From contig CBDBCY010000004.1 in assembly GCA_965203555.1 (NCBI GenBank), forward strand, positions 1,057,554-1,121,553: DNA of 64,000 nucleotides, given 5' to 3'. The notes under the pieces are model-generated. The model was not told the DNA's origin. It did no database searches and was given only the letters and a program-made list of their open reading frames with translations. Origin of the DNA: Acidimicrobiia bacterium (GTDB lineage Bacteria; Actinomycetota; Acidimicrobiia; Spongiisociales; ZC4RG35). Within the stretch, counting starts at the first letter, position 1; every line of letters starts with the position of its first letter. The position numbers were made by a program, and so were the translations under genes. Below are positions 47,431-62,214 of this stretch, piece by piece.

Positions 47431-48215
47431 CCGATCGCCCTTCGAAGCACCGGGCGGTAATGGACCTCAGCCGTGAGGAGTGGCTGGATGCGCTGGGCAT
47501 GGACGCCGCGGACATCCCGAAGGCTGTCATCATGGAAGGTTCCTGGTGGCGAGCGCAACGCACAGAGTGGCGTCTGAGCTACCTGGACGACGTGCGGGAA
47601 CTCGCCTTTCCCGACATGTTCTACGGATTCTGGCAAGGGTCACCGGTTGTGTACTCCTGCGTCTACGGAGCACCCAGAGCTGTTGAATTGGCGCACCTGT
47701 TCGGAGTGCTGGGGACATCCCGGATGGTCATGATCGGCACGTGCGGCGCCCTGGATCCCGGATTGGCTACCGGCGACGTGGTCGTACCTTCGCAAGCGGT
47801 GGCTCGGGAAGGGGTTGCTCACCTTTACCAAGACGTGGCGGAAGACACCGGAGTCGTCTTCTCCGACCCGGATCTCACCCGAAGGGGAAAGGCCGCCCTA
47901 GAGAACAGAGGAGTCAGGACTGCCGACTCCCTGCATCTGACATGGAGTTCCATCTTCGCTCAGAGCGGAGCCATGGTCGAGGAGTGGCGGGAAAGGGGCT
48001 ACGGATCCGTGGACATGGAAGCCGCCACTCTCTTCGCCGTAGCGAGACACTTCCAATTCGCCGCCACGGCTCTGCTGGTGGTGTGGGACCAACTAGCCGC
48101 CGACCGCAGCTTCCTCGACCCCCTCACCCCAACAGAACAAAGCCATCTTCATACAGCAAACGCGGCTGTTCATAAAGTTGCTCTAGAAATAGCAATCGAC
48201 TCTGCTACCGATTGA
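47427..48215 (+). CDS. Nucleoside phosphorylase (PNP/UDP phosphorylase superfamily)
   Basis: …VMIGTCGALDPGLATGDVVVPSQAV…, …GSVDMEAATLFAVA… is the PNP_UDP_1 fold. ATGA overlaps the MFS gene. Confidence 0.8.
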   Translation: MTDRPSKHRAVMDLSREEWLDALGMDAADIPKAVIMEGSWWRAQRTEWRLSYLDDVRELAFPDMFYGFWQGSPVVYSCVYGAPRAVELAHLFGVLGTSRMVMIGTCGALDPGLATGDVVVPSQAVAREGVAHLYQDVAEDTGVVFSDPDLTRRGKAALENRGVRTADSLHLTWSSIFAQSGAMVEEWRERGYGSVDMEAATLFAVARHFQFAATALLVVWDQLAADRSFLDPLTPTEQSHLHTANAAVHKVALEIAIDSATD

Positions 48216-48353
48216 AGGCTGTAGGTGTGAACCACCCTCCAAGGCTTAGTGTCCACACTGCCGAGTATCTGGCAACCCCCAGCTGAAATCCGAAGGGGCT
48301 TATCTCCAGATGCGACCCAGGGTCTCTATCATTGTTAATATAAACTGTCCACA

Positions 48354-49322
48354 ATGTCCCATGACGCCTCTAATGGTCCCACACACGATGGCAATCTGGC
48401 AACATCCTCTGGCCGGTATGCACAACGTGCCCTTGCCTGCTACGCACAAGGTGACTGGGAGGGCTTTGTTGTCAATGCCTGTACCGCCGTGGAGTTGCTA
48501 GCCAAAGCGGTTCTTGCAAAGGTAAATATTCTGCTGATAGCAGATTGTAGAGAGAAGAGCCTTTTAGAACTAGCGTTAAGCAATCCTAGACGAGGATTTC
48601 CAACTTCGGCCCGAACAATCGGCATCGGGGCGTGCCTCAGCCGCATCAACGCGATCGGAGTGAGGTTGGACTACCGGGACGAGGTGCTGGCTTTATCCAA
48701 GATGCGTAACAGTTTGCTACATAGTGGACATTATGACCCTGATGCTGTGGATGAATCTCTACTAAGGGTTTGGGTGAGTGCATTAGTCCAACTCGCTGAT
48801 CACGGTCAATACGGCAGATCCATGATCTTCGGGGTTCACACGGAGTTTGCGGAAACCCAGATTAGCCAACACGAGGATGACTTAGCAGCTCTCCTGGCAA
48901 AGAAGATGGCGGCTGCCCAAAGTCGGTGGCGAGAGCTAGCTGATCTTGACTCGCTCAGCATCCCATTGATGCATGAAGTCCTACTAACCCAGCTTATTGC
49001 CGATAATTCCGTGGATCCAACCATCCAGTGTATGCCCTGCCCCGTCTGTGACATGCCAGCCGGTCTTTTCGGGGAATTTGAACCTGAGCCAGAATATGAC
49101 AGGATCGACGGAGAAATGATGGCTGTTGGTGTTTATCACGAATACGTGCCGGAACAACTCTTCTGTCAAACCTGTCGGTTACACTTGGACTCACGGGAAC
49201 TGGTAGAGCGATCTGGGGTGTTAGACAATTGGGAGGTCTCTGATGATGATCGTGAGCGATGGGATAAGATAGTTGCTGAAGAGGAGCTTTGGAATGACAA
49301 GGAGTGGCGATTCGACTTCTAG
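48354..49322 (+). CDS. Hypothetical protein with HEPN-like R-x4-H motif and C-terminal CxxC…CxxC zinc ribbon (candidate defense gene)
   Basis: First gene of the lower-GC island. KMRNSLLHSG is an Rx4H HEPN-type motif at the end of an alpha-helical ~150-aa N-terminal region. …CMPCPVCDM…(~45 aa)…CQTCRLH has four Cys in ribbon spacing. Confidence 0.55.
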   Translation: MSHDASNGPTHDGNLATSSGRYAQRALACYAQGDWEGFVVNACTAVELLAKAVLAKVNILLIADCREKSLLELALSNPRRGFPTSARTIGIGACLSRINAIGVRLDYRDEVLALSKMRNSLLHSGHYDPDAVDESLLRVWVSALVQLADHGQYGRSMIFGVHTEFAETQISQHEDDLAALLAKKMAAAQSRWRELADLDSLSIPLMHEVLLTQLIADNSVDPTIQCMPCPVCDMPAGLFGEFEPEPEYDRIDGEMMAVGVYHEYVPEQLFCQTCRLHLDSRELVERSGVLDNWEVSDDDRERWDKIVAEEELWNDKEWRFDF

Positions 49323-49704
49323 CCGGAGGACTGTTGAGCGGTGAGGAAGGATACTATTGTCAATGGCATGCAACCCCCGCAGATGCAATGGGATCCGCTT
49401 AACATCAGCCCTCATTGAGGCCTCCTGAATAGGCGACACAGTACCGCCCAACATCAGCGAGGCCTTAACCCCTGAACAAGGACCTCAACCATCCCCACTC
49501 CCCAACAATTCGCGAAGCCTCGATTCGCTAAGTCGCACAATCCACACAGAGGTATGGTGAACACAGCGTCCGCTCCGAAGGACAGAACACCGGCTGAGGG
49601 ACTAGGCGCTTTGCGAGTTCTTCGGATAGGAGTAAGGGGAGGCTGCGCGTTTCCATTACCGTCAGGCCCACCGCCGTCTCCAAGACCATCGACCGGACTG
49701 AGGC

Positions 49705-51918
49705 CTAAAAGGGATCCTCATAGTCGCTGTACCCACCCCGCATTTTCTCCCCTGCCGAATCCCTTCTTGCAAAGACACGACCTTCCCATTTTGCGCAAAT
49801 CTCCTCGAAGTTCGGTACCTTCTCCTCTTCGACCCAACTCTTGTACATCTGCGGATTGATGCTTTGCGGCACTGGATACGCTTCCCTAATGAGAGCTAAC
49901 GAAGGGATTTGTATACATTGCCCTAGCACCAAAGCGGTACGAGAGGGTAAGGTAGGAAGCTGATCAAGAAGTTCCGAATAGATGTTAGGAACTATCGCAC
50001 GAAAGTAGTGGAGATCTGCAGGGTTCTGCAATCGATGGACGATAAAACTATTGCATTGCGCCAGAACCGTGCGTGAGAGTTCGCTGGGTCGTTGAGAGGC
50101 TATTACCAATCCCAATCCACACTTTCTGCCCTCTCTGGCAATGCGTTCAAATATCTCCTTTGAAATAGAATCTTCCTCTGCTCGGCCAGTTTCCCGTATA
50201 TAATTGTGCGCTTCATCGAGGATCAGGACGACTGGATAATCTCCTCTCTCGACACCACTGATCGGATCAGAGAGTCGCTGCAGGAATTCGTGAATGAGCC
50301 GACCCAGAAGGGCTGTAACATTCTCAAGTGCTTCCGTAGCAAGAAGGCTCAAATCAACGATCACCACATTAGACCCGGATGATCCCTGCCGCTGCCGTTT
50401 GTAAAAGGGAAATACTTCCGGGGAAAGGGTGCAGGTGCCAATGCTGTGATCATTATCCCGAGAGCTAGCGCCGAGAATATCCCGCAAAAAGGTAGCCAAG
50501 GCATGCTCTACCTGTGGCCATTCGCTATCTGTCGGACCAAAGAGAAAGTCAAACCGGGAGTCTGCCAGGAGTCTATATATCCGCAATAGCATTGTAGAAC
50601 AATAGTCTCGGGTTCGAGGGGAATAGGCCTCGCTGCTAGCGAGAGCATCTTCGAGATACAGATCGCGAAAATCGCTCTTACTGAAGAATCTGGGGCTGTC
50701 CACAGAGGCGGCACCTCGGTGACCAGTCAACTGAGGAACACCCGCCAACTCCATAATCAAGGATTGAGCCACTTGGTTCACTTCTTGTCTAAGAGCCATA
50801 GTCAACGGATCGTAATCGCGGTCGCTCCTCCTTCTCACCTTCTTTCGTAGCTCGTGGAGTGTCTCCACTACCTCCTCTTGCAATATTGTTGGGTAGTGAC
50901 TAAGCAGTTCTCCAAGTGCACCGGCATTACCTGGGTCCTGTAGATAGGAAACAATCCCCTTGCACAATACGTCAATGGTGTTTCTTTCTTGCCATCGCCC
51001 CTCTCTTGCTGCAGTCATCATGCGTTGGCACTCTATCCGTAAGTCTTCTCTTAGTTTAACCCATGTTGGACTCTCTCCAGATTCCCGCGCGGCGGTGAGA
51101 GCTTCTAGCAACACTGGCTGCTGTACCCCCGGTGACGCTCGGAACAACCGTACAAAGTCGTCGGCGTTCATGAACCAGTATGGTATCGCCAGTTTGTCAG
51201 ATGCATCTGCGGCCGTGGGAATGTATAGAGTCTTATAGGACTCATGCACATCTGTCCAAGAGCCTTGTGGACTCCGTCGTTGGAAAGCGGAACGGTATTC
51301 GCCGTGTGTGTCAAAAATAATAAACCTGGTTTGCTTGACTGCGGGCGTATGCAGAATTGCTTGTATGATCGAAGAGATAGTACAGGACTTTCCGGAGCCG
51401 GTGCTACCGAGAACAGCGGCATGCATGCCAAAGAAGGCATCTACGTCAATGTTGATTGCGTATTCCGGGAAGACAGCGGAGCGACCAATGGACAAATGAG
51501 AATCGCCTCCCAAGGGAAAGCCTGGTTCAATGGCTCTTTGGAATATCGCATCAAGATCCTGCTGTGTTGGCATGAGAACAGGAGAATCCAGCACAGGATG
51601 GCTGCTAATGCCTTGCTGATAGATTCCTTCTTCAACAACGCCAGTCATTACTCCTCGTAGCATCTTCCTAGCGGACGGCAGGTGCACCGTATTGCCAGCA
51701 GCAGTAGCGCTTCCATCCTCCTTCACATAAAGGCGAGTAACAATAGCTACATTGCGATGTCCACCCACCGGAATGACGACATAGGAGTTTATATGCCCGG
51801 CATCCTTGGTCCCTTCAATCGTTGAACGAGTAAAACTCTTGAGATCGCTCTCTAGAGCTACCGTCACTTGTGCGGCATCTACGGCGACGACTCTACCGAT
51901 CCTGTAATCATCCATCAT
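49705..51918 (-). CDS. herA: HerA-like FtsK/HerA-superfamily ATPase of a Sir2-HerA defense pair
   Basis: Walker A GSTGSGKS, Walker B VVLILDEAHNY, …LVIASQRPSEL… (arginine-finger region). 737 aa, immediately downstream (14 bp) of the SIR2 gene on the same strand. Confidence 0.85.
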   Translation of the reverse strand: MMDDYRIGRVVAVDAAQVTVALESDLKSFTRSTIEGTKDAGHINSYVVIPVGGHRNVAIVTRLYVKEDGSATAAGNTVHLPSARKMLRGVMTGVVEEGIYQQGISSHPVLDSPVLMPTQQDLDAIFQRAIEPGFPLGGDSHLSIGRSAVFPEYAINIDVDAFFGMHAAVLGSTGSGKSCTISSIIQAILHTPAVKQTRFIIFDTHGEYRSAFQRRSPQGSWTDVHESYKTLYIPTAADASDKLAIPYWFMNADDFVRLFRASPGVQQPVLLEALTAARESGESPTWVKLREDLRIECQRMMTAAREGRWQERNTIDVLCKGIVSYLQDPGNAGALGELLSHYPTILQEEVVETLHELRKKVRRRSDRDYDPLTMALRQEVNQVAQSLIMELAGVPQLTGHRGAASVDSPRFFSKSDFRDLYLEDALASSEAYSPRTRDYCSTMLLRIYRLLADSRFDFLFGPTDSEWPQVEHALATFLRDILGASSRDNDHSIGTCTLSPEVFPFYKRQRQGSSGSNVVIVDLSLLATEALENVTALLGRLIHEFLQRLSDPISGVERGDYPVVLILDEAHNYIRETGRAEEDSISKEIFERIAREGRKCGLGLVIASQRPSELSRTVLAQCNSFIVHRLQNPADLHYFRAIVPNIYSELLDQLPTLPSRTALVLGQCIQIPSLALIREAYPVPQSINPQMYKSWVEEEKVPNFEEICAKWEGRVFARRDSAGEKMRGGYSDYEDPF

Positions 51919-51932
51919 GGAAGCTGGCGTTT

Positions 51933-53336
51933 CTACTGCTTGTCTCTGGATAGCGCCATTTTGTTGTAAGTCTGGACGACCTTCAGGGAAAGCTCTTCTT
52001 CCCGCAAATTGGGTAGCAGTGTGTCAACAAACGCATCAAAATGCCCCAGTGTCCCGCTCACAATCCATACTCGCTCATCCTTTAGCTCTTCCAGACTCGC
52101 CACAAATTCGCTCCGAGGATTAGGATCTACCACAACCAAGGTGAAGCTTGGGATTGCCAAAGCTTGACGTATTTGCGCGTTAACATGTTCGTCCCCAAAT
52201 CCGTAGCCTACAACCACCAGTGTTGATTGCGGTTGGGCAACAGCATTACCAAACCTCCGAAACATCTCCGAGTAGGGCAACCCCAAAGACTGGCCATACT
52301 TCAGCGGTGATGGGTAGATAAGCACGTCTTTATCCTCTGTTGATTCACCATATAGGGTCGCATAGAGTCCAAAAGGATTCAACCACGATGCCTCACAGCT
52401 GTGCCAATTAATGGACCCATGAAGCTTATACAGTTGTATTACCCTGTCATAGCGATGAACTCGCCCTTCAGTGGTCTGGGCGGGAAAGTAGAAGTCTATA
52501 TCATAGGACTCTGGCCTGAACACGCGGCGTAGTGTTCCGACAAAGCCATCCATCATAATCACTCCTTCAGCATCACCTGCTTGTTCAATGAGCGTATCAT
52601 AATTGAGTGTAAACAGATGAGTGCGACGCAGATTGAGGGGTCGGGTCAGAAGCTTCCTTAGTAGCAAACGATGAGTGCGGAGACTACCCTCTTTAGCAGG
52701 CACCGGTAAATCAAGCAAACGCGTTAGAGTATCCTCAATAGTCCTGATCAATGTTGCCAATACGCATTTGTTAATGTGGATGTATTCCTCATTGCACAAA
52801 ACTAGAGTGTCCGTTGATGTGAGCATACTAGCCGACCATGTGTGCAGTAGGCTCAAGAGGTGTTCTAAATTCAACGGGATGGGCTCAACCGAAGTATCCG
52901 AGGATGGACACTCCGTGCTCCGCTCTTCAAATGACAAGTCCTGTCCAGTAAGAATGGAAGCTACCTTATAGAAGAGGTCAAGCCAATCCGGCATGGAATC
53001 AGACGACCGCGGCATCCCTGCTCTTTGAATCAGATGCTTTTCCAATGGCCAAGGTATTGCAGCAAGCGATACACCACCGGCATCAATGGAAGCCCCTGCG
53101 CCCAATAGAAAGGACACATTTTCGGTCTTTAGGATCGTGCCAAATCGAACACGCATCCGCTTGAGAGTGTTCTCAAGAGCTGCTTGGGCCACCGTTGCTT
53201 GGGCTTCGTCCTCTGGATCTAAGGGGTTGAGGGCGTCCAGAGCCTGGCTTATGATGTCATCCTTGCCTAGCAGGATCCGGGAATCAGTGTAAGGAAGTGC
53301 TGACTTGTGGTTCATTGTTTCGCCGCGCGGAGTCAT
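51933..53336 (-). CDS. SIR2-family NADase-like protein of a Sir2-HerA defense pair
   Basis: FLLGAGASIDAGG (SIR2 GAGxS NAD-binding loop), LYKLHGSINW (catalytic His), VVGYGFGDEHVN (GYSFxD motif). An alternative start at 53315 (MNHKS) is possible. Confidence 0.85.
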   Translation of the reverse strand: MTPRGETMNHKSALPYTDSRILLGKDDIISQALDALNPLDPEDEAQATVAQAALENTLKRMRVRFGTILKTENVSFLLGAGASIDAGGVSLAAIPWPLEKHLIQRAGMPRSSDSMPDWLDLFYKVASILTGQDLSFEERSTECPSSDTSVEPIPLNLEHLLSLLHTWSASMLTSTDTLVLCNEEYIHINKCVLATLIRTIEDTLTRLLDLPVPAKEGSLRTHRLLLRKLLTRPLNLRRTHLFTLNYDTLIEQAGDAEGVIMMDGFVGTLRRVFRPESYDIDFYFPAQTTEGRVHRYDRVIQLYKLHGSINWHSCEASWLNPFGLYATLYGESTEDKDVLIYPSPLKYGQSLGLPYSEMFRRFGNAVAQPQSTLVVVGYGFGDEHVNAQIRQALAIPSFTLVVVDPNPRSEFVASLEELKDERVWIVSGTLGHFDAFVDTLLPNLREEELSLKVVQTYNKMALSRDKQ

Positions 53337-54014
53337 AGGATTTCGTTACGGAAGGATACCAATGGAGGTGATGAGGCAAGCGTATTTTGGGAATTTGGGA
53401 TGTAAGTGGGGAGTGCCACTGGACGGCGCGCAGGTAGAATCAACCGAATCGACGTCGCATGGCGGCGTGGTCACGGGTCTTTGATCTAATCGACACCCGA
53501 TGGTACGGATACCTGAGCGAAAGTGTCGTGGAGAGCTGGACCCACTCCCATCTCATCCCGCCAAGAGAGCGGCACTTGTGTGAGGTGCTCGCCAAGGGGA
53601 ACGCCAGGGTCACAGCGGAGGCTTAACCAGGTCGCGAATCCTTCCCGCACCGACTCAGCAGAACGGTGGCAACAGGGCAAACCCCACCCTCTCAGACCGA
53701 CCAAGTCAAGGTATCACCCTTGTCAACCTCCCCCCTGGCAACATCAGGTGGAAGGGGGAAGTGCACCCTTTGGTTGGTCACGCCGAGATGAACGACAACG
53801 TGGTTAAGGTCACAAACGCAGAGAAATCTGAACCACTCCGAGTGTCCGGAGGTGCAGCCCTTGGGAGGTGCAGCCCTTGGGAGATCCAGCTTAGGGAAAG
53901 ACAAGAAGAAACGTTAGCCGGAAGTCCGCTAGAGGGCTGTTCGGTTGATGTTCGTTGGTAAGCGCGAGCGTCGGTAGCAGTGGGCGGCGATTCATTGATC
54001 ACCGAGAAGGCGGG

Positions 54015-57269: not shown

Positions 57270-58908
57270 AGTGCCTCTCTGACCTGGGAGAATAGCTGTT
57301 ACCAAACACGGCTATTTGCCCTGGCAGAGGAGGCACTTCTTGTGAAAATGATAACCAGGTTGGACAGGTTGGAGGTGAGGTTCGACGAGGGGTCGTTGGT
57401 CGCAGACGCGGGTCTGCTACTGGCCGGGAGTTTTTTGTCCCGGTTGGGTGTGGAACAGTTGGTGGACGACACCGTGAACATTCCCGGCAAACAGGGCGGC
57501 GCCCGTCCGGGCCGCAAGATACTGTCGTTGGTGGCGTCGATGCTGCTGGGCGGCACCCATATCGATCATGCCGATCGGCTGCGGTCTGCAGCCACCCGTA
57601 GGGTGCTGCCGTTTCGGGTGATGGCCCCTTTTCACGCTGGGAACGTTTCTTCGTTCTTTCACATGGGGTCATGTCTGCCAGTTGAACAAAGCCTTGGGAC
57701 TGCTGCTGGCCCGGGTCTGGTCCCAGCCGGGCATCGGCCCGGGCGACCGTCCGTTGATTATTGATGTGGACTCCACCATCTGCGAGGTTCACGGCAAGAA
57801 AAAGGAAGGCGCCGTCTACGGTCACACCGGTGTGTTGGGATACCATCCGCTGACGGCGATCGTGTCCGACACCGGCGAGATTGTTCATCATCGCCTGCGG
57901 AAAGGATCCTCGCAGAGAGGAAACACCCGGTTCATGGTGGAGACGGTCAACCGGGTGAGACGGGCCGGAGCGACCGGTACGATCACCGTCCGGGCGGACA
58001 AGGGCTTTTGGTCGGGTAAGACCGTGCAGAAACTGGAGTCCATGGGAGCGGAGTGGTTTATCGGTGTTCGACGATATCCCAACGTTAAACGTGCTATAGA
58101 GAACATAGACAAGGACGATTGGGTGGATATCGGCTACACCCCGGACGGTCAGGCGCAGGTGGCCGAGACCACTATCACCACCAAGATCGACAAAGAAGAA
58201 CACACCCTGCGGGTGGTGGTCAGACGCACCCGCCTCACCGACCGCCAACACCCCCCAGTTGCCGATCTGGTCCGACTGGCGACACCACGCGTTCGCCACC
58301 AGCAACCGTGTCCTCGAAGCGGTGGAAGCCGACAGTATGTACCGCCGTCATGCCTGTGTGGAACTGGGCATCCGCGACCTCAAACACCACGCCGGACTGG
58401 CCCACTGTCCATCAGGGCGGTTCTTCGCCAACGCCGCCTGGATGGCCGCCGCGGTGGCGGCTCACAACCTGTACCGGTGGATCAACCACCACACCGGCGC
58501 AACACCGAAGGGAAAGCTCACCTGCGGTCGCACGGTCCGCACCCGCCTTTTCAACCTGCCCGGAAGAATCGTCAACCACAGCCACAAACTCCTCCTGCGA
58601 CTACCCACCCGCTGGCCATGGGCACACACCTACCACACCGCTCTCAACAGCATCCGCACCCTGCCACAACTCTGCTGAACAACCCCGCCAGCAACCCAAA
58701 CCCTCTATCAGGACTGCATCACCCCGGCTGCCGCATACCCCAAAAGCCCCCCACCGGACCGTTCCCACCCCGCAACCCCACCGACAGACCCCGACCACCG
58801 TCCAAAGAACAAAACCCGCCCGCCAAAACACCAAAAACAAGCCCGATCACACCAACCACACCCACCCAAACCACCCGATCGGTGGATTGAGGTTCCAACC
58901 ATCCGCCT
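57262..58908 (+). mobile_element. IS1380-family insertion sequence (boundaries approximate) with frameshifted transposase
   Basis: The transposase is spread over three frames (57342..57764, 57682..~58260, 58259..58678) with IS1380-like blocks: …DVDSTICEVHGKKKEGAVYGHTGVLGYHPL…, …RADKGFWS…, …RHACVELGIRDLKHHAGLAHCPSGRFFANAAWMAAAVAAHNLYRW…. It is followed by a ~230-bp C/A-rich tail. It interrupts the helicase reading frame between …PPVGLVVWGG and VVGGALIIPQ…. Confidence 0.7.
57342..58678 (+). pseudogene. IS1380-family DDE transposase with two or more frameshifts
   Basis: See the mobile_element entry. Colinear homology needs +1/-1 shifts near ~57690 and ~58255. Confidence 0.65.
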
Positions 58909-59376: not shown

Positions 59377-59460
59377 CCCAGAGTCGACCGAAGGAGTGCT
59401 TGTTACCCTTCCATGGGGCCTATCCCATACCCTGCCCCGACATCCGTGCGAAGTTACACC

Positions 59461-62214
59461 ATGGCCTATAAGAAGAAGCTGATCGAGGTGGCGTTGCCGT
59501 TGCAGACCATCAGCAAAGAGGCGGCACGGGAGAAGTCAATTCGTCATGGACACCCTTCTACCTTGCATCTGTGGTGGGCACGGCGCCCGCTGGCAGCGGC
59601 TCGTGCAGTGCTGTGGGCGTCGCTGGTAGATGACCCCTCGGCTCATCCCGGCCGATTTCCTACCGAACAGGATCAGTCGGATGAACGGAAGCGACTGTTC
59701 GAAACGCTCACAGACTTGGTGAAGTGGAAGAACACCAATAACGTCCAGGTGCTGTCCGCTGCGAAGGCCGAGATCCTGGCATCCTGTGACGGTGAGTTAC
59801 CCAACATCCTGGACCCCTTCTGCGGGGGCGGGACTATTCCTTTGGAAGCGCAGCGGCTGGGATTGCCTGCCTATGGCGGGGATTTGAATCCGGTGGCGGT
59901 CTTGATCTCGAAGGCCATGGTAGAGATTCCACCCCGGTTTGCAGGAATACCGCCGATCAACCCCGAAGCGGGGAACAGCATGGACGTTGGTTCTTGGGAA
60001 GGGGCACGAGGTCTGGCTGAAGACATTGTCTATTACGGCCGGTGGGTGCGAGACCAGGCTTTAAAGCGTATCGGACATCTCTACCCAAGAGCTCAGGTCC
60101 CCGAAGGTGTCGGAGGGCGGAGGGAGACTGTTATCGCCTGGATATGGGCTCGCACCGTCCAGTCCCCGGACCCGGCTTGGGACGGGCACGTGCCGCTTGT
60201 CGGCTCATGGGTATTGCGAAGGAGACCCGGGAAGCCGTGGGTATGGGTGAAGCCTTTGGTTGATCACGACACCCAAACCATCAGCTATCAAATCCGAGAG
60301 GGAGGCACACCTCCCAAAGGCACAGTAAAGCGGGCAGTTGGCACCTGCATAGCCACCGGGGCCACCATCCCAAATGCCTACATTAAAGAAGAGGGACAGG
60401 CAGGAAGGATGGGGCAACACCTGATAGCCGTGGTTTGTGAGGGACATGACGGACGCCGGTACCTGCCACCAGAAAGCACTCCACATGTAGAAGTGCCTAT
60501 ACCGGAGTGGGAACCTAGGGGAAGGCTGGACGGCAAGGCAGGGGATCAAATGCCTCTCTATGGCTCCACTCATTGGAGACATCTGTTCACAGATCGTCAA
60601 CTTGTCGCGCTGACCACCTTCTCGGATCTTCTGCTGGAGGTTCGATCATCCATAGAGCAAGATGCGCGAAAGGCGGATCTCCCCGCAGACAACAGGCCCC
60701 TTCGACAGGGGGGTTCTGGAGCCAACGCCTATGGTGAAGCTCTTCTGACCTTCCTGGCGTTTGCATTAGACCGATGCGCGGTTAGGTGGTCGGAATGCGT
60801 TCCATGGCATGCTGGCCGCGAAACCGTGGAACACGTGTTCGGGCGTCAGGCCATCGCAATGGTGTGGTACTTCCCGGAAGCCAACCCCTTCTCTTCCTCC
60901 ACCGGCAACTGGTTGGGACAGCTCACTTGGATCGGCAAGGTGGTCGAGAACCTCCCGGCTCAAGGATTGGGGGAGGTGTTTCAGCAGGATGCCCGAGCAC
61001 GGCTGAGTTCAGTTCCTAATCCGGTTGTGACCACCGATCCACCCTATTACGACAACATCTGCTATGCCGATATCTCGGACTTCTTCTACGTGTGGCTTCG
61101 ACACAACCTCCGCTCTATCTGGCCCGATGAGTTGTCCACCCTTGCTACCCCCAAGGCGGAAGAACTGATTGCCAGTGCCTACCGCCACCAGAGCAAAACA
61201 GCAGCCGCGCACTTTTTCGAGTCTGGAATGAGGGAAGTCTTGGGAGAAGCCGCTCAGGTGCAGCATCCCGATTTTCCAGTCTCCATTTTCTACGCTTTCA
61301 AACAAGCAGAAACCAAAAAAGGCGAAACCGTCTCCACCGGATGGCAGACGTTTCTCCAGGCACTCAACGACACAGGACTCAGAGTCTTGGCCACCTGGCC
61401 CATGCGCACAGAGATGACTTCCGGACTTAGGAGCCTGGCTTCCACGTTGGCATCATCAATCGTGATCGTATGCCGCCCTCGACCCGCCAATTCACCCCTG
61501 GCCACTCGTGGCGAGCTACTGGCGGCTCTCCGCTCTGAACTCCCTTCCGCTATGCGACTGTTACGAGAACAGGCTATTGCTCCTGTGGACATGGACCAAT
61601 CCATGATCGGCCCGGGTATGGCAGTGTTTTCCCGTTACTCCCGGGTACTAAATGCCGATGGAACCGCCATGTCGGTCCGTCAGGCCTTGGCTCTCATCGA
61701 CCAGATAAAGGAAGAGACCCTCTCGGAGGAAGAGACCGAGTTCGACTACGAGACCCGGTGGGCTCTCACATGGTATCGACAGTTTGGGGCAGACCTCGGC
61801 TCCTACGGAGACGCAGAGACCCTATCGAAAGCCAAGAACACCTCGGTGTCCAGCGTGGTCAGAGCCGGAATCGCCACTTCTGTGGCTGGTAAGGTGCAAC
61901 TCGTCCCGCGCGCCGACCTTAACCCAAACTGGGATCCTAGGGCAGATCCCAGCCCGAAGGTGTGGCAGGTTACTCAGCACCTTTTGGACCGCTTGGAGAG
62001 ATCCGAGACCGAAGCCGCCGATCTTCTCCGTCAAGCCGGTTCGGGTATGGGCGATCGAGCCCGGCAACTCGCCTATTTGCTCTATCAAACCGCGGATCGC
62101 CGGGGGTGGGCGCAAGAGAGAATCGTTTACAACATGCTGGTGACCGTCTGGCCGACTCTCGTTGACTTGGCTGCCCAGCCATCCCCCGGACAAGGCAGCC
62201 TCCTGGAAGCATGA
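59461..62214 (+). CDS. DUF1156 (COG1743) putative adenine-specific DNA methyltransferase of defense systems (PglXI-like)
   Basis: MAYKKKLIEVALPLQTISKEAAREKSIRHGHPSTLHLWWARRPLAAARAVLWASLVDDP is the conserved DUF1156 N-terminus. …DPFCGGGTIPLEAQRLGL… is a motif-I-like SAM-binding loop. …VVTTDPPYYDNICYADISDFFYVW… is a DPPY motif IV. The track ORF begins 16 codons earlier at 59413. Confidence 0.85.
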   Translation: MAYKKKLIEVALPLQTISKEAAREKSIRHGHPSTLHLWWARRPLAAARAVLWASLVDDPSAHPGRFPTEQDQSDERKRLFETLTDLVKWKNTNNVQVLSAAKAEILASCDGELPNILDPFCGGGTIPLEAQRLGLPAYGGDLNPVAVLISKAMVEIPPRFAGIPPINPEAGNSMDVGSWEGARGLAEDIVYYGRWVRDQALKRIGHLYPRAQVPEGVGGRRETVIAWIWARTVQSPDPAWDGHVPLVGSWVLRRRPGKPWVWVKPLVDHDTQTISYQIREGGTPPKGTVKRAVGTCIATGATIPNAYIKEEGQAGRMGQHLIAVVCEGHDGRRYLPPESTPHVEVPIPEWEPRGRLDGKAGDQMPLYGSTHWRHLFTDRQLVALTTFSDLLLEVRSSIEQDARKADLPADNRPLRQGGSGANAYGEALLTFLAFALDRCAVRWSECVPWHAGRETVEHVFGRQAIAMVWYFPEANPFSSSTGNWLGQLTWIGKVVENLPAQGLGEVFQQDARARLSSVPNPVVTTDPPYYDNICYADISDFFYVWLRHNLRSIWPDELSTLATPKAEELIASAYRHQSKTAAAHFFESGMREVLGEAAQVQHPDFPVSIFYAFKQAETKKGETVSTGWQTFLQALNDTGLRVLATWPMRTEMTSGLRSLASTLASSIVIVCRPRPANSPLATRGELLAALRSELPSAMRLLREQAIAPVDMDQSMIGPGMAVFSRYSRVLNADGTAMSVRQALALIDQIKEETLSEEETEFDYETRWALTWYRQFGADLGSYGDAETLSKAKNTSVSSVVRAGIATSVAGKVQLVPRADLNPNWDPRADPSPKVWQVTQHLLDRLERSETEAADLLRQAGSGMGDRARQLAYLLYQTADRRGWAQERIVYNMLVTVWPTLVDLAAQPSPGQGSLLEA

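Follow-up and report, generated by a model that had tools for sequence, protein, structure and literature searches.

Does a solitary gene at the edge of a defence island encode an immune effector in its own right, or does it serve the systems beside it? The question is raised by a 64,000-nucleotide stretch of contig CBDBCY010000004.1 of an Acidimicrobiia bacterium (hereafter the window), in which an open reading frame (ORF) encoding a 322-residue protein lies on the plus strand beside a Sir2-HerA system. A first-pass annotation, made from the letters of the DNA, had described this ORF as standing alone at the head of the island and convergent with Sir2-HerA, and the ORF list, the PADLOC matches and a drop in GC content at its start bear this description out. 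The same annotation had proposed either a single-gene defence effector or a regulator of the neighbouring system. We infer a defence function, and judge it fairly probable that the protein acts on its own as a HEPN ribonuclease (RNase) immune effector. Its predicted catalytic dyad is intact and invariant, it has a HEPN fold and a Cys4 ribbon, its gene stands alone, and it is remotely homologous to the validated defence protein HEC-08.

Conservation of the predicted active site and zinc ligands

The protein belongs to a rare, patchily distributed and mainly actinobacterial family. Nine close homologs, the query included, were found among 5.8 billion proteins (42-59% identity, ~315-335 residues), the query itself being a singleton cluster in the databases, whilst an exhaustive phmmer search of 1.84 billion cluster representatives recovered 434 relatives with an E-value of 1e-3 or below, 117 of which reach 1e-10 or below, and nearly all are full-length (~300-320 residues). 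An alignment of 111 of these relatives underlies the statements on conservation made throughout.

The Rx4H motif noted at first pass within KMRNSLLH is present, running from R118 to H123, as are cysteines at positions 226, 229 and 232 (CMPCPVC) and at 271 and 274 (CQTC). Taken alone, an Rx4H is not beyond chance, occurring in 49% of shuffles of the query, compared with 2% for RNx3H and 0.4% for two CxxC pairs spaced 20-60 residues apart. The motifs gain their significance through conservation, since E47, R118, H123, C229, C232, C271 and C274 are invariant at a mean column identity of 22%, and are the only columns to be so, with K51, L54, T88, P230 and G240 nearly invariant. The four-cysteine ribbon of the first-pass annotation holds for C229, C232, C271 and C274, which are the ribbon ligands, but not for C226, which is not conserved. 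Exactly four cysteines occur in the C-terminal part of 83 of the 111 relatives, with the second knuckle lying 29-47 residues (median 40) past the first. On sequence grounds, the predicted catalytic E/K...RNx3H set and the single Cys4 site would together constitute the functional core of a real family.

This pattern bears on whether the protein might instead be a non-catalytic or housekeeping HEPN protein (MtlR-like, similar to the C-terminal domain of KNTase, or an RNA-processing factor) with defence neighbours that are coincidental. Inactive HEPN families lose the Arg and His of the Rx4H motif (PMC3710099), both of which are invariant here, and the rare and patchy distribution, foreign composition, mobile or variable locations and homology to a validated defence protein all speak against such a role, which we regard as improbable.

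Predicted structure

AlphaFold2, run on the nine-sequence alignment, yields a confident model, with a mean predicted local distance difference test score (pLDDT) of 83 and a predicted template modelling score (pTM) of 0.67. The N-terminus, described at first pass as mostly alpha-helical, is so in the model, where it adopts the all-alpha up-down helical bundle of the HEPN fold (Table 1). Such a bundle had been named beforehand as the test of the HEPN assignment. The Rx4-6H signature of the HEPN superfamily, with Asn following Arg, is likewise conserved among the relatives. Beyond this domain, the two linker helices may take part in dimerisation.

In the C-terminal region, strands 224-228, 235-251 and 254-270 form a three-stranded sheet (model pLDDT 90), with the two CxxC knuckles placed at beta-hairpin turns in the manner of a zinc ribbon, a site that would bind zinc. 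The ribbon domain and the tail that follows it carry a net negative charge in all 111 relatives (means of -7.9 and -9.7, respectively; query values -9 and -8), and the charge of the HEPN domain is roughly neutral. A sequence-profile search of the PDB returned spurious helical matches only (best E 0.006), and a comparison with the BFVD viral structures yielded nothing at E ≤ 0.001.

Table 1. Positions, in the window, of the HEPN-zinc-ribbon gene, its parts and the neighbouring defence genes
Feature	Position	Strand	Remarks
HEPN-zinc-ribbon coding sequence (CDS)	48354..49322	+	ATG start, 322 residues plus stop; from ORF list and translation, and full-length homologs of ~300-320 residues
Upstream intergenic region, presumed own promoter	48216..48353	+	from sequence and the GC drop at the left island boundary
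N-terminal HEPN domain, residues 1-150	48354..48803	+	helices 11-31, 35-57, 108-124, 134-150; insert 58-107
E47-K51 in TAVELLAKA helix	48492..48506	+	conserved HEPN-core polar pair; E47 invariant, K51 99%; aligned with HEC-08 E56/K60
R118-N119-x3-H123, predicted catalytic Rx4H	48705..48722	+	R118/H123 invariant, N119 81%; aligned with HEC-08 R123/N124/H128
Two long linker helices, residues 151-222	48804..49019	+	155-195 and 202-220 in model; colinear with HEC-08 linker in hhalign
Cys4 zinc-ribbon domain, residues 223-280	49020..49193	+	unusually long beta-hairpin between two knuckles
First zinc knuckle, C229-P-V-C232	49038..49049	+	cysteines invariant in 111 relatives; aligned with HEC-08 C212/C215
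Second zinc knuckle, C271-Q-T-C274	49164..49175	+	cysteines invariant in 111 relatives
Acidic helical C-terminal tail, residues 281-322	49194..49319	+	model helices 281-286, 297-309, 317-321
herA	49705..51918	-	convergent with HEPN-zinc-ribbon gene; PADLOC E 1.9e-141
SIR2 gene	51933..53336	-	beside herA; PADLOC E 1.8e-79
HmaA	53955-57269		PADLOC 1327 bits, alignment from residue 88; true start may be downstream of TTG
HmaB	59413-62214		DUF1156 methylase
HmaC	62223 to past window end		N-terminal Swt1-like HEPN domain, Pfam E 1.7e-19

Remote homology to HEC-08 and DUF3644

HEC-08 combines an N-terminal DUF3644 HEPN domain with C-terminal zinc-ribbon-like domains and is embedded in Hma systems, with the single gene shown to confer anti-phage defence that is abolished by mutation of H128 in its Rx4-6H motif (Payne, et al., bioRxiv 10.1101/2024.01.29.577857). 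Using the HEC-08 sequence from Table S2 of Payne, et al. and 35 aligned members of its family of 267 clusters, hhalign relates the profile of the 111-member query family to that of HEC-08 with a probability of 95.2% and an E-value of 2.5e-8 over 198 columns, spanning residues 12-243 of the query and 20-224 of HEC-08. Running colinearly from the HEPN domain across the linker to the first CxxC, the alignment sets E47/K51, R118/N119/H123 and C229/C232 opposite their HEC-08 counterparts (Table 1), along with an FG motif, and each of these counterparts is invariant among the 35 HEC-08 sequences. By this homology the query carries a HEPN domain of the HEC-08 type, with H123 the equivalent of H128. 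Against the single HEC-08 sequence, the family profile gives a probability of 85% (E 6e-6). The PADLOC model for HEC-08 (PDLC04162) has no match to the query at E ≤ 10, and matches 1 of the 111 relatives (E 1e-3 over 53 residues).

DUF3644 has been classed as a HEPN family, and the overlapping EC042_2821 family is fused to zinc-ribbon (ZnR), and also to winged helix-turn-helix and restriction endonuclease, domains in restriction-modification (R-M) operons (Anantharaman, et al. 2013, PMC3710099). With 11.3 bits against DUF3644 (PF12358), the query stays below the gathering cut-off of 27.6 (E 0.26, residues 36-126), and it has a second sub-threshold match, at residues 227-293, to the Lar zinc ribbon (E 0.18). 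Among the relatives, DUF3644 is matched by 6 with Pfam (E ≤ 0.01) and by 8 with PADLOC, all below or near threshold, whilst the Pfam HEPN family PF05168 is matched by 4, and the Csx1/Csm6 HEPN model of PADLOC by 2. Judged by these sequence relationships, the query family is best filed with the DUF3644-like HEPN and zinc-ribbon proteins, as a divergent member of the group that HEC-08 typifies and that the PADLOC model PDC-S64 covers in part. Nineteen of the 111 relatives match PDC-S64 (PDLC05059; best E 7.2e-10, residues 3-223). That model has no match to the query at E ≤ 10, and its match to the close homolog P0003 reaches only E 0.016.

Most public homologs of HEC-08 (P0171-P0290) are annotated 'hsdR', presumably a mis-naming that has spread through their embedding in type I R-M loci.

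Genomic contexts of the homologs

The surroundings of the gene were compared across 11 independent chromosomal or metagenomic contexts and 7 contexts on Streptomyces plasmids, with defence genes scored within 10 kb. A close-alignment locus search gave two genome loci and two metagenome loci, the latter duplicating L004. Defence-type genes occur in 6 of the 11 chromosomal or metagenomic contexts, which is a raw count and not an enrichment statistic. In the window, these are Sir2-HerA followed by a complete Hma system. Elsewhere they comprise GmrSD and Mrr directly upstream of the homolog in Ca. Aldehydirespirator (L007, Acidimicrobiia), an integrase, two KAP nucleoside triphosphatases, an SLFN-like helicase, HNH and MazG in Ornithinimicrobium pekingense (L008/9), an integrase with HATPase_c_3, HEPN_RES_NTD1-RES and TIR genes (L004/5/6/13), a TIR protein (L011), and MTaX1, SNF2, AAA_23 and a methyltransferase (L003). 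Of the remaining contexts, L001 and L002 are variable regions rich in insertion sequences (IS) with no clear defence genes, and L010, L014 and L015 hold no recognised ones. Taken together, the sampled contexts suggest a mobile gene with an accessory or defence role.

L001 and L002 are contigs of Acidimicrobiia-like metagenome-assembled genomes from the same sample. Here (L001, 11278-13279; L002, 11441-13022) a DUF6338 gene comes after the homolog, complete in L001 and truncated in L002, and past it both carry a 92%-identical ISL3 transposase, pointing to recent IS activity around the gene.

An all-vs-all BLAST of flanking ORFs from 18 loci revealed no conserved partner or antitoxin, its matches being IS copies, antisense artefacts and one related plasmid pair, and no MNT antitoxin of the HepT-MntA kind is conserved next to the gene across these loci. 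Outside the window, neither Sir2 nor HerA occurs in any of the 10 chromosomal or metagenomic contexts or the 7 plasmid contexts. The query itself found no match by tblastn in phage and plasmid collections, and none in a scan of IMG/VR viral contigs.

Members of the wider family are carried by at least 33 PLSDB plasmids, of which 27 are from Streptomyces, and lie there amongst hypothetical genes, recombinases, IS elements and sometimes parAB. In two Streptomyces linear plasmids, distant members (L024, 7980-8861; L023, 7992-8900) either follow parA-parB directly or lie within a few kb of these genes, a placement that hints at a role in plasmid maintenance or plasmid competition in that branch.

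Such locations, together with the integrases or transposases that often accompany the chromosomal copies, are also what would be expected of a HEPN toxin belonging to the biology of mobile elements, whether it serves the addiction or stabilisation of plasmids and islands or acts as an anti-plasmid or incompatibility factor. The latter would resemble Ishtar, a group of monogenic anti-conjugation proteins with an N-terminal HEPN domain, for which clearance of plasmid RP4 has been reported (bioRxiv 10.64898/2026.07.06.735840). However, plasmids and islands commonly carry defence systems too, so that the contexts do not discriminate between these roles, and an addiction toxin is poorly matched by the lack of a conserved adjacent cognate antitoxin or MNT gene. 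Beyond the HEPN motif the family is unrelated to Ishtar (hhalign probability of 1% against 16 Ishtar homologs), whereas its closest demonstrable relative, HEC-08, is anti-phage. We hold a mobile-element toxin to be rather unlikely, and continue to favour an autonomous immune effector.

Position in the window and neighbouring systems

To the left of the HEPN-zinc-ribbon gene lies an ABC-transporter/major facilitator superfamily (MFS)/PNP_UDP_1 operon ending at 48215, with a PNP_UDP_1 phosphorylase as the immediate upstream gene. The GC content falls from ~0.64 to ~0.51 exactly at the start of the HEPN-zinc-ribbon gene, and its GC content at third codon positions (GC3) of 0.52 is like that of HerA (0.49) and SIR2 (0.51), and unlike that of the core PNP gene (0.68) and the Hma helicase (0.67). 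Because of this drop and this shared GC3, the gene is the first of a compositionally foreign block of ~5.2 kb that forms the left edge of the island. That the GC3 is ~0.5 across the HEPN-zinc-ribbon gene and Sir2-HerA (48216-53500), compared with ~0.67-0.68 in core and Hma genes, suggests that Hma arrived in a separate event from this block, which may have come as one unit. No tRNA or Rfam element was detected, and the island is not bounded by convincing att-like repeats.

Co-acquisition of this kind would suit a protein that does not act alone but serves the adjacent Sir2-HerA (or Hma) system as a regulator or accessory subunit, as would the distance of 380 bp from the convergent herA, the presence of a complete Hma system (PADLOC) to the right of Sir2-HerA and 4.6 kb from the gene, and the embedding of the related HEC-08 in Hma loci. 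The regulatory role raised at first pass is nevertheless not supported by comparison with the homologs, since none of their other contexts holds Sir2 or HerA, and no neighbour is conserved. Furthermore, the gene lies on the opposite strand and is thus a separate transcription unit, Sir2-HerA is complete as a two-gene system in the PADLOC models, and HEC-08 is active alone when cloned. An accessory role is, in our view, very improbable.

The regulatory sequences of the gene bear on whether it could be a mere passenger ORF, brought in by horizontal transfer and now decaying or without function. No sigma-70 consensus promoter was found upstream of the start, and no sigma-70-type promoter or terminator was recognised on either flank, by a scan that does not cover actinobacterial promoters and carries no information for a high-GC actinobacterial host. 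The sole promoter-like match in the scanned region falls within the CDS (49222-49250). Whilst this, and the singleton status of the query, are what a passenger might show, the reading frame is intact, full-length and colinear with homologs at 42-59% identity, all predicted catalytic and zinc-ligand residues are kept, and the structure is predicted with confidence, making decay an explanation that we consider exceedingly improbable.

The neighbouring genes show several features of their own. The Swt1-like domain at the N-terminus of HmaC is a second HEPN domain in the island, and a DDE transposase ORF (DDE_Tnp_1_4, E 3e-17) at 57682-58890 lies between hmaA and hmaB, where it may or may not disturb expression of the operon. 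An imperfect 15-nt direct repeat, GGAAGGATACTATTG / GGAAGGATACCAATG, at 49345-49359 and 53350-53364 flanks the Sir2-HerA cassette almost exactly. With ~16 exact 10-mer seed pairs expected in 5.9 kb, this is estimated to be at chance level, which makes an insertion scar improbable. Another repeat, possibly an operator-like element, lies between the divergent sir2 and hmaA genes, where tandem copies of the 16-nt unit GGAGGTGCAGCCCTTG occupy 53848-53879 and an 81% copy is found at 53757.

Proposed mode of action

Several of our results weigh against an autonomous immune effector. Pairwise BLASTP between the query and HEC-08 is not significant, and the homology detected with hhalign ends past the first CxxC, so that it does not cover equivalence of the sensing part. 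No model in Pfam, NCBIfam or PADLOC, those for HEC-08 and PDC-S64 included, matches the query above threshold. The family, which the first-pass annotation did not recognise, is nonetheless not wholly unknown, since it belongs with the DUF3644-like HEPN and zinc-ribbon proteins. Finally, whilst six contexts do hold defence genes, recognisable defence genes are lacking in 5 of the 11 chromosomal or metagenomic contexts and in most of the 7 on Streptomyces plasmids. The candidacy of the gene as a single-gene defence effector is nonetheless strengthened by the remote homology to HEC-08, the PDC-S64 matches of 19 of the 111 relatives, the absence of a conserved partner, and the six contexts that do contain defence genes.

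If the protein is such an effector, R118 and H123 of the N-terminal DUF3644-like HEPN RNase domain would be catalytic, with E47, K51 and N119 in supporting roles, and two long helices would connect this domain to the Cys4 zinc-ribbon domain and its acidic tail. Dimerisation would create a composite active site, as in other HEPN RNases, which would probably be inactive in uninfected cells. From the net negative charge seen in all 111 relatives, we infer that the module formed by the ribbon and tail is unlikely to bind RNA; it may more likely be a protein-binding sensor and/or an auto-inhibitor. This module could engage some part of a phage or another mobile element that invades the cell, in a manner comparable to the zinc-finger domain of RAZR acting on its HEPN domain, and engagement would release nonspecific or tRNA/mRNA cleavage, stopping translation and arresting growth, with the infection being aborted or the invader cleared. 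The specific proposal that the C-terminal module gates the HEPN site is a tentative one, and we would not be surprised were the control to differ.

Should it prove functional, the protein would add to the known immune effectors a compact RNase encoded by a single gene in Actinomycetota, among them Acidimicrobiia and the plasmids of Streptomyces, and would extend the HEC-08-type design of HEPN domain and zinc ribbon well beyond Enterobacteria. The query protein is missed by current detection tools (PADLOC v2, Pfam and NCBIfam). As a simpler, one-ribbon relative of HEC-08, it is possibly a convenient model for the gating of a HEPN nuclease by a zinc ribbon. No current idea is overturned, with HEPN effectors being expected in defence islands.

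Comparison with known systems

In contrast to HepT-MntA, a type VII toxin-antitoxin system, the query family has no conserved partner, and has an additional C-terminal region of 170 residues with a zinc ribbon. Ishtar proteins (the Ist1/Ist2 family, Ist2 being of the DUF3644 type) share with it an N-terminal HEPN domain followed by a C-terminal domain (beta-rich in Ishtar), a monogenic organisation and a patchy distribution, but lack a cysteine ribbon, and the signature motifs of the query family are absent from the Ishtar homolog tables.

The best mechanistic analogue is RAZR/PD-T7-4, whose N-terminal Cys4 ribbon detects phage rings of portal or recombinase type and whose C-terminal HEPN domain (DUF4145) cleaves single-stranded RNA as an abortive-infection response (Zhang, et al., Nature 2026, PMC13017515). 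Both are single proteins pairing a Cys4 zinc ribbon with a HEPN domain, although the domain order is reversed, the HEPN domain preceding the ribbon in the query, and the HEPN domain of RAZR belongs to the DUF4145 clade. With no DUF4145 or PD-T7-4 match in the query or its 111 relatives (Pfam, PADLOC), the resemblance appears to be one of analogy and not of detectable homology.

PDC-S64, a single-gene phage-defence candidate nominated in PADLOC by genomic association, is similar in the length of its profile (339), with the comparison made through the PADLOC model only. The EC042_2821/DUF3644 family shares the combination of HEPN domain and zinc ribbon, but the query falls below the DUF3644 gathering cut-off and few of its relatives match. 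The closest comparison is with HEC-08 (E. coli ECOR52, WP_001313577.1). HEC-08 is enterobacterial, usually found in R-M or Hma loci, and has eight invariant CxxC pairs that make up several ribbons, whereas the query family is mainly actinobacterial and has two such pairs and one ribbon. Both are nonetheless single genes of similar size (366 and 322 residues), in whose products a DUF3644-like HEPN domain with TAVExLxK and RNx3H motifs comes first, followed by a helical linker and, at the C-terminus, a CxxC zinc-ribbon region, and both are associated with Hma loci, HEC-08 being embedded in them and the gene described here lying adjacent to one.

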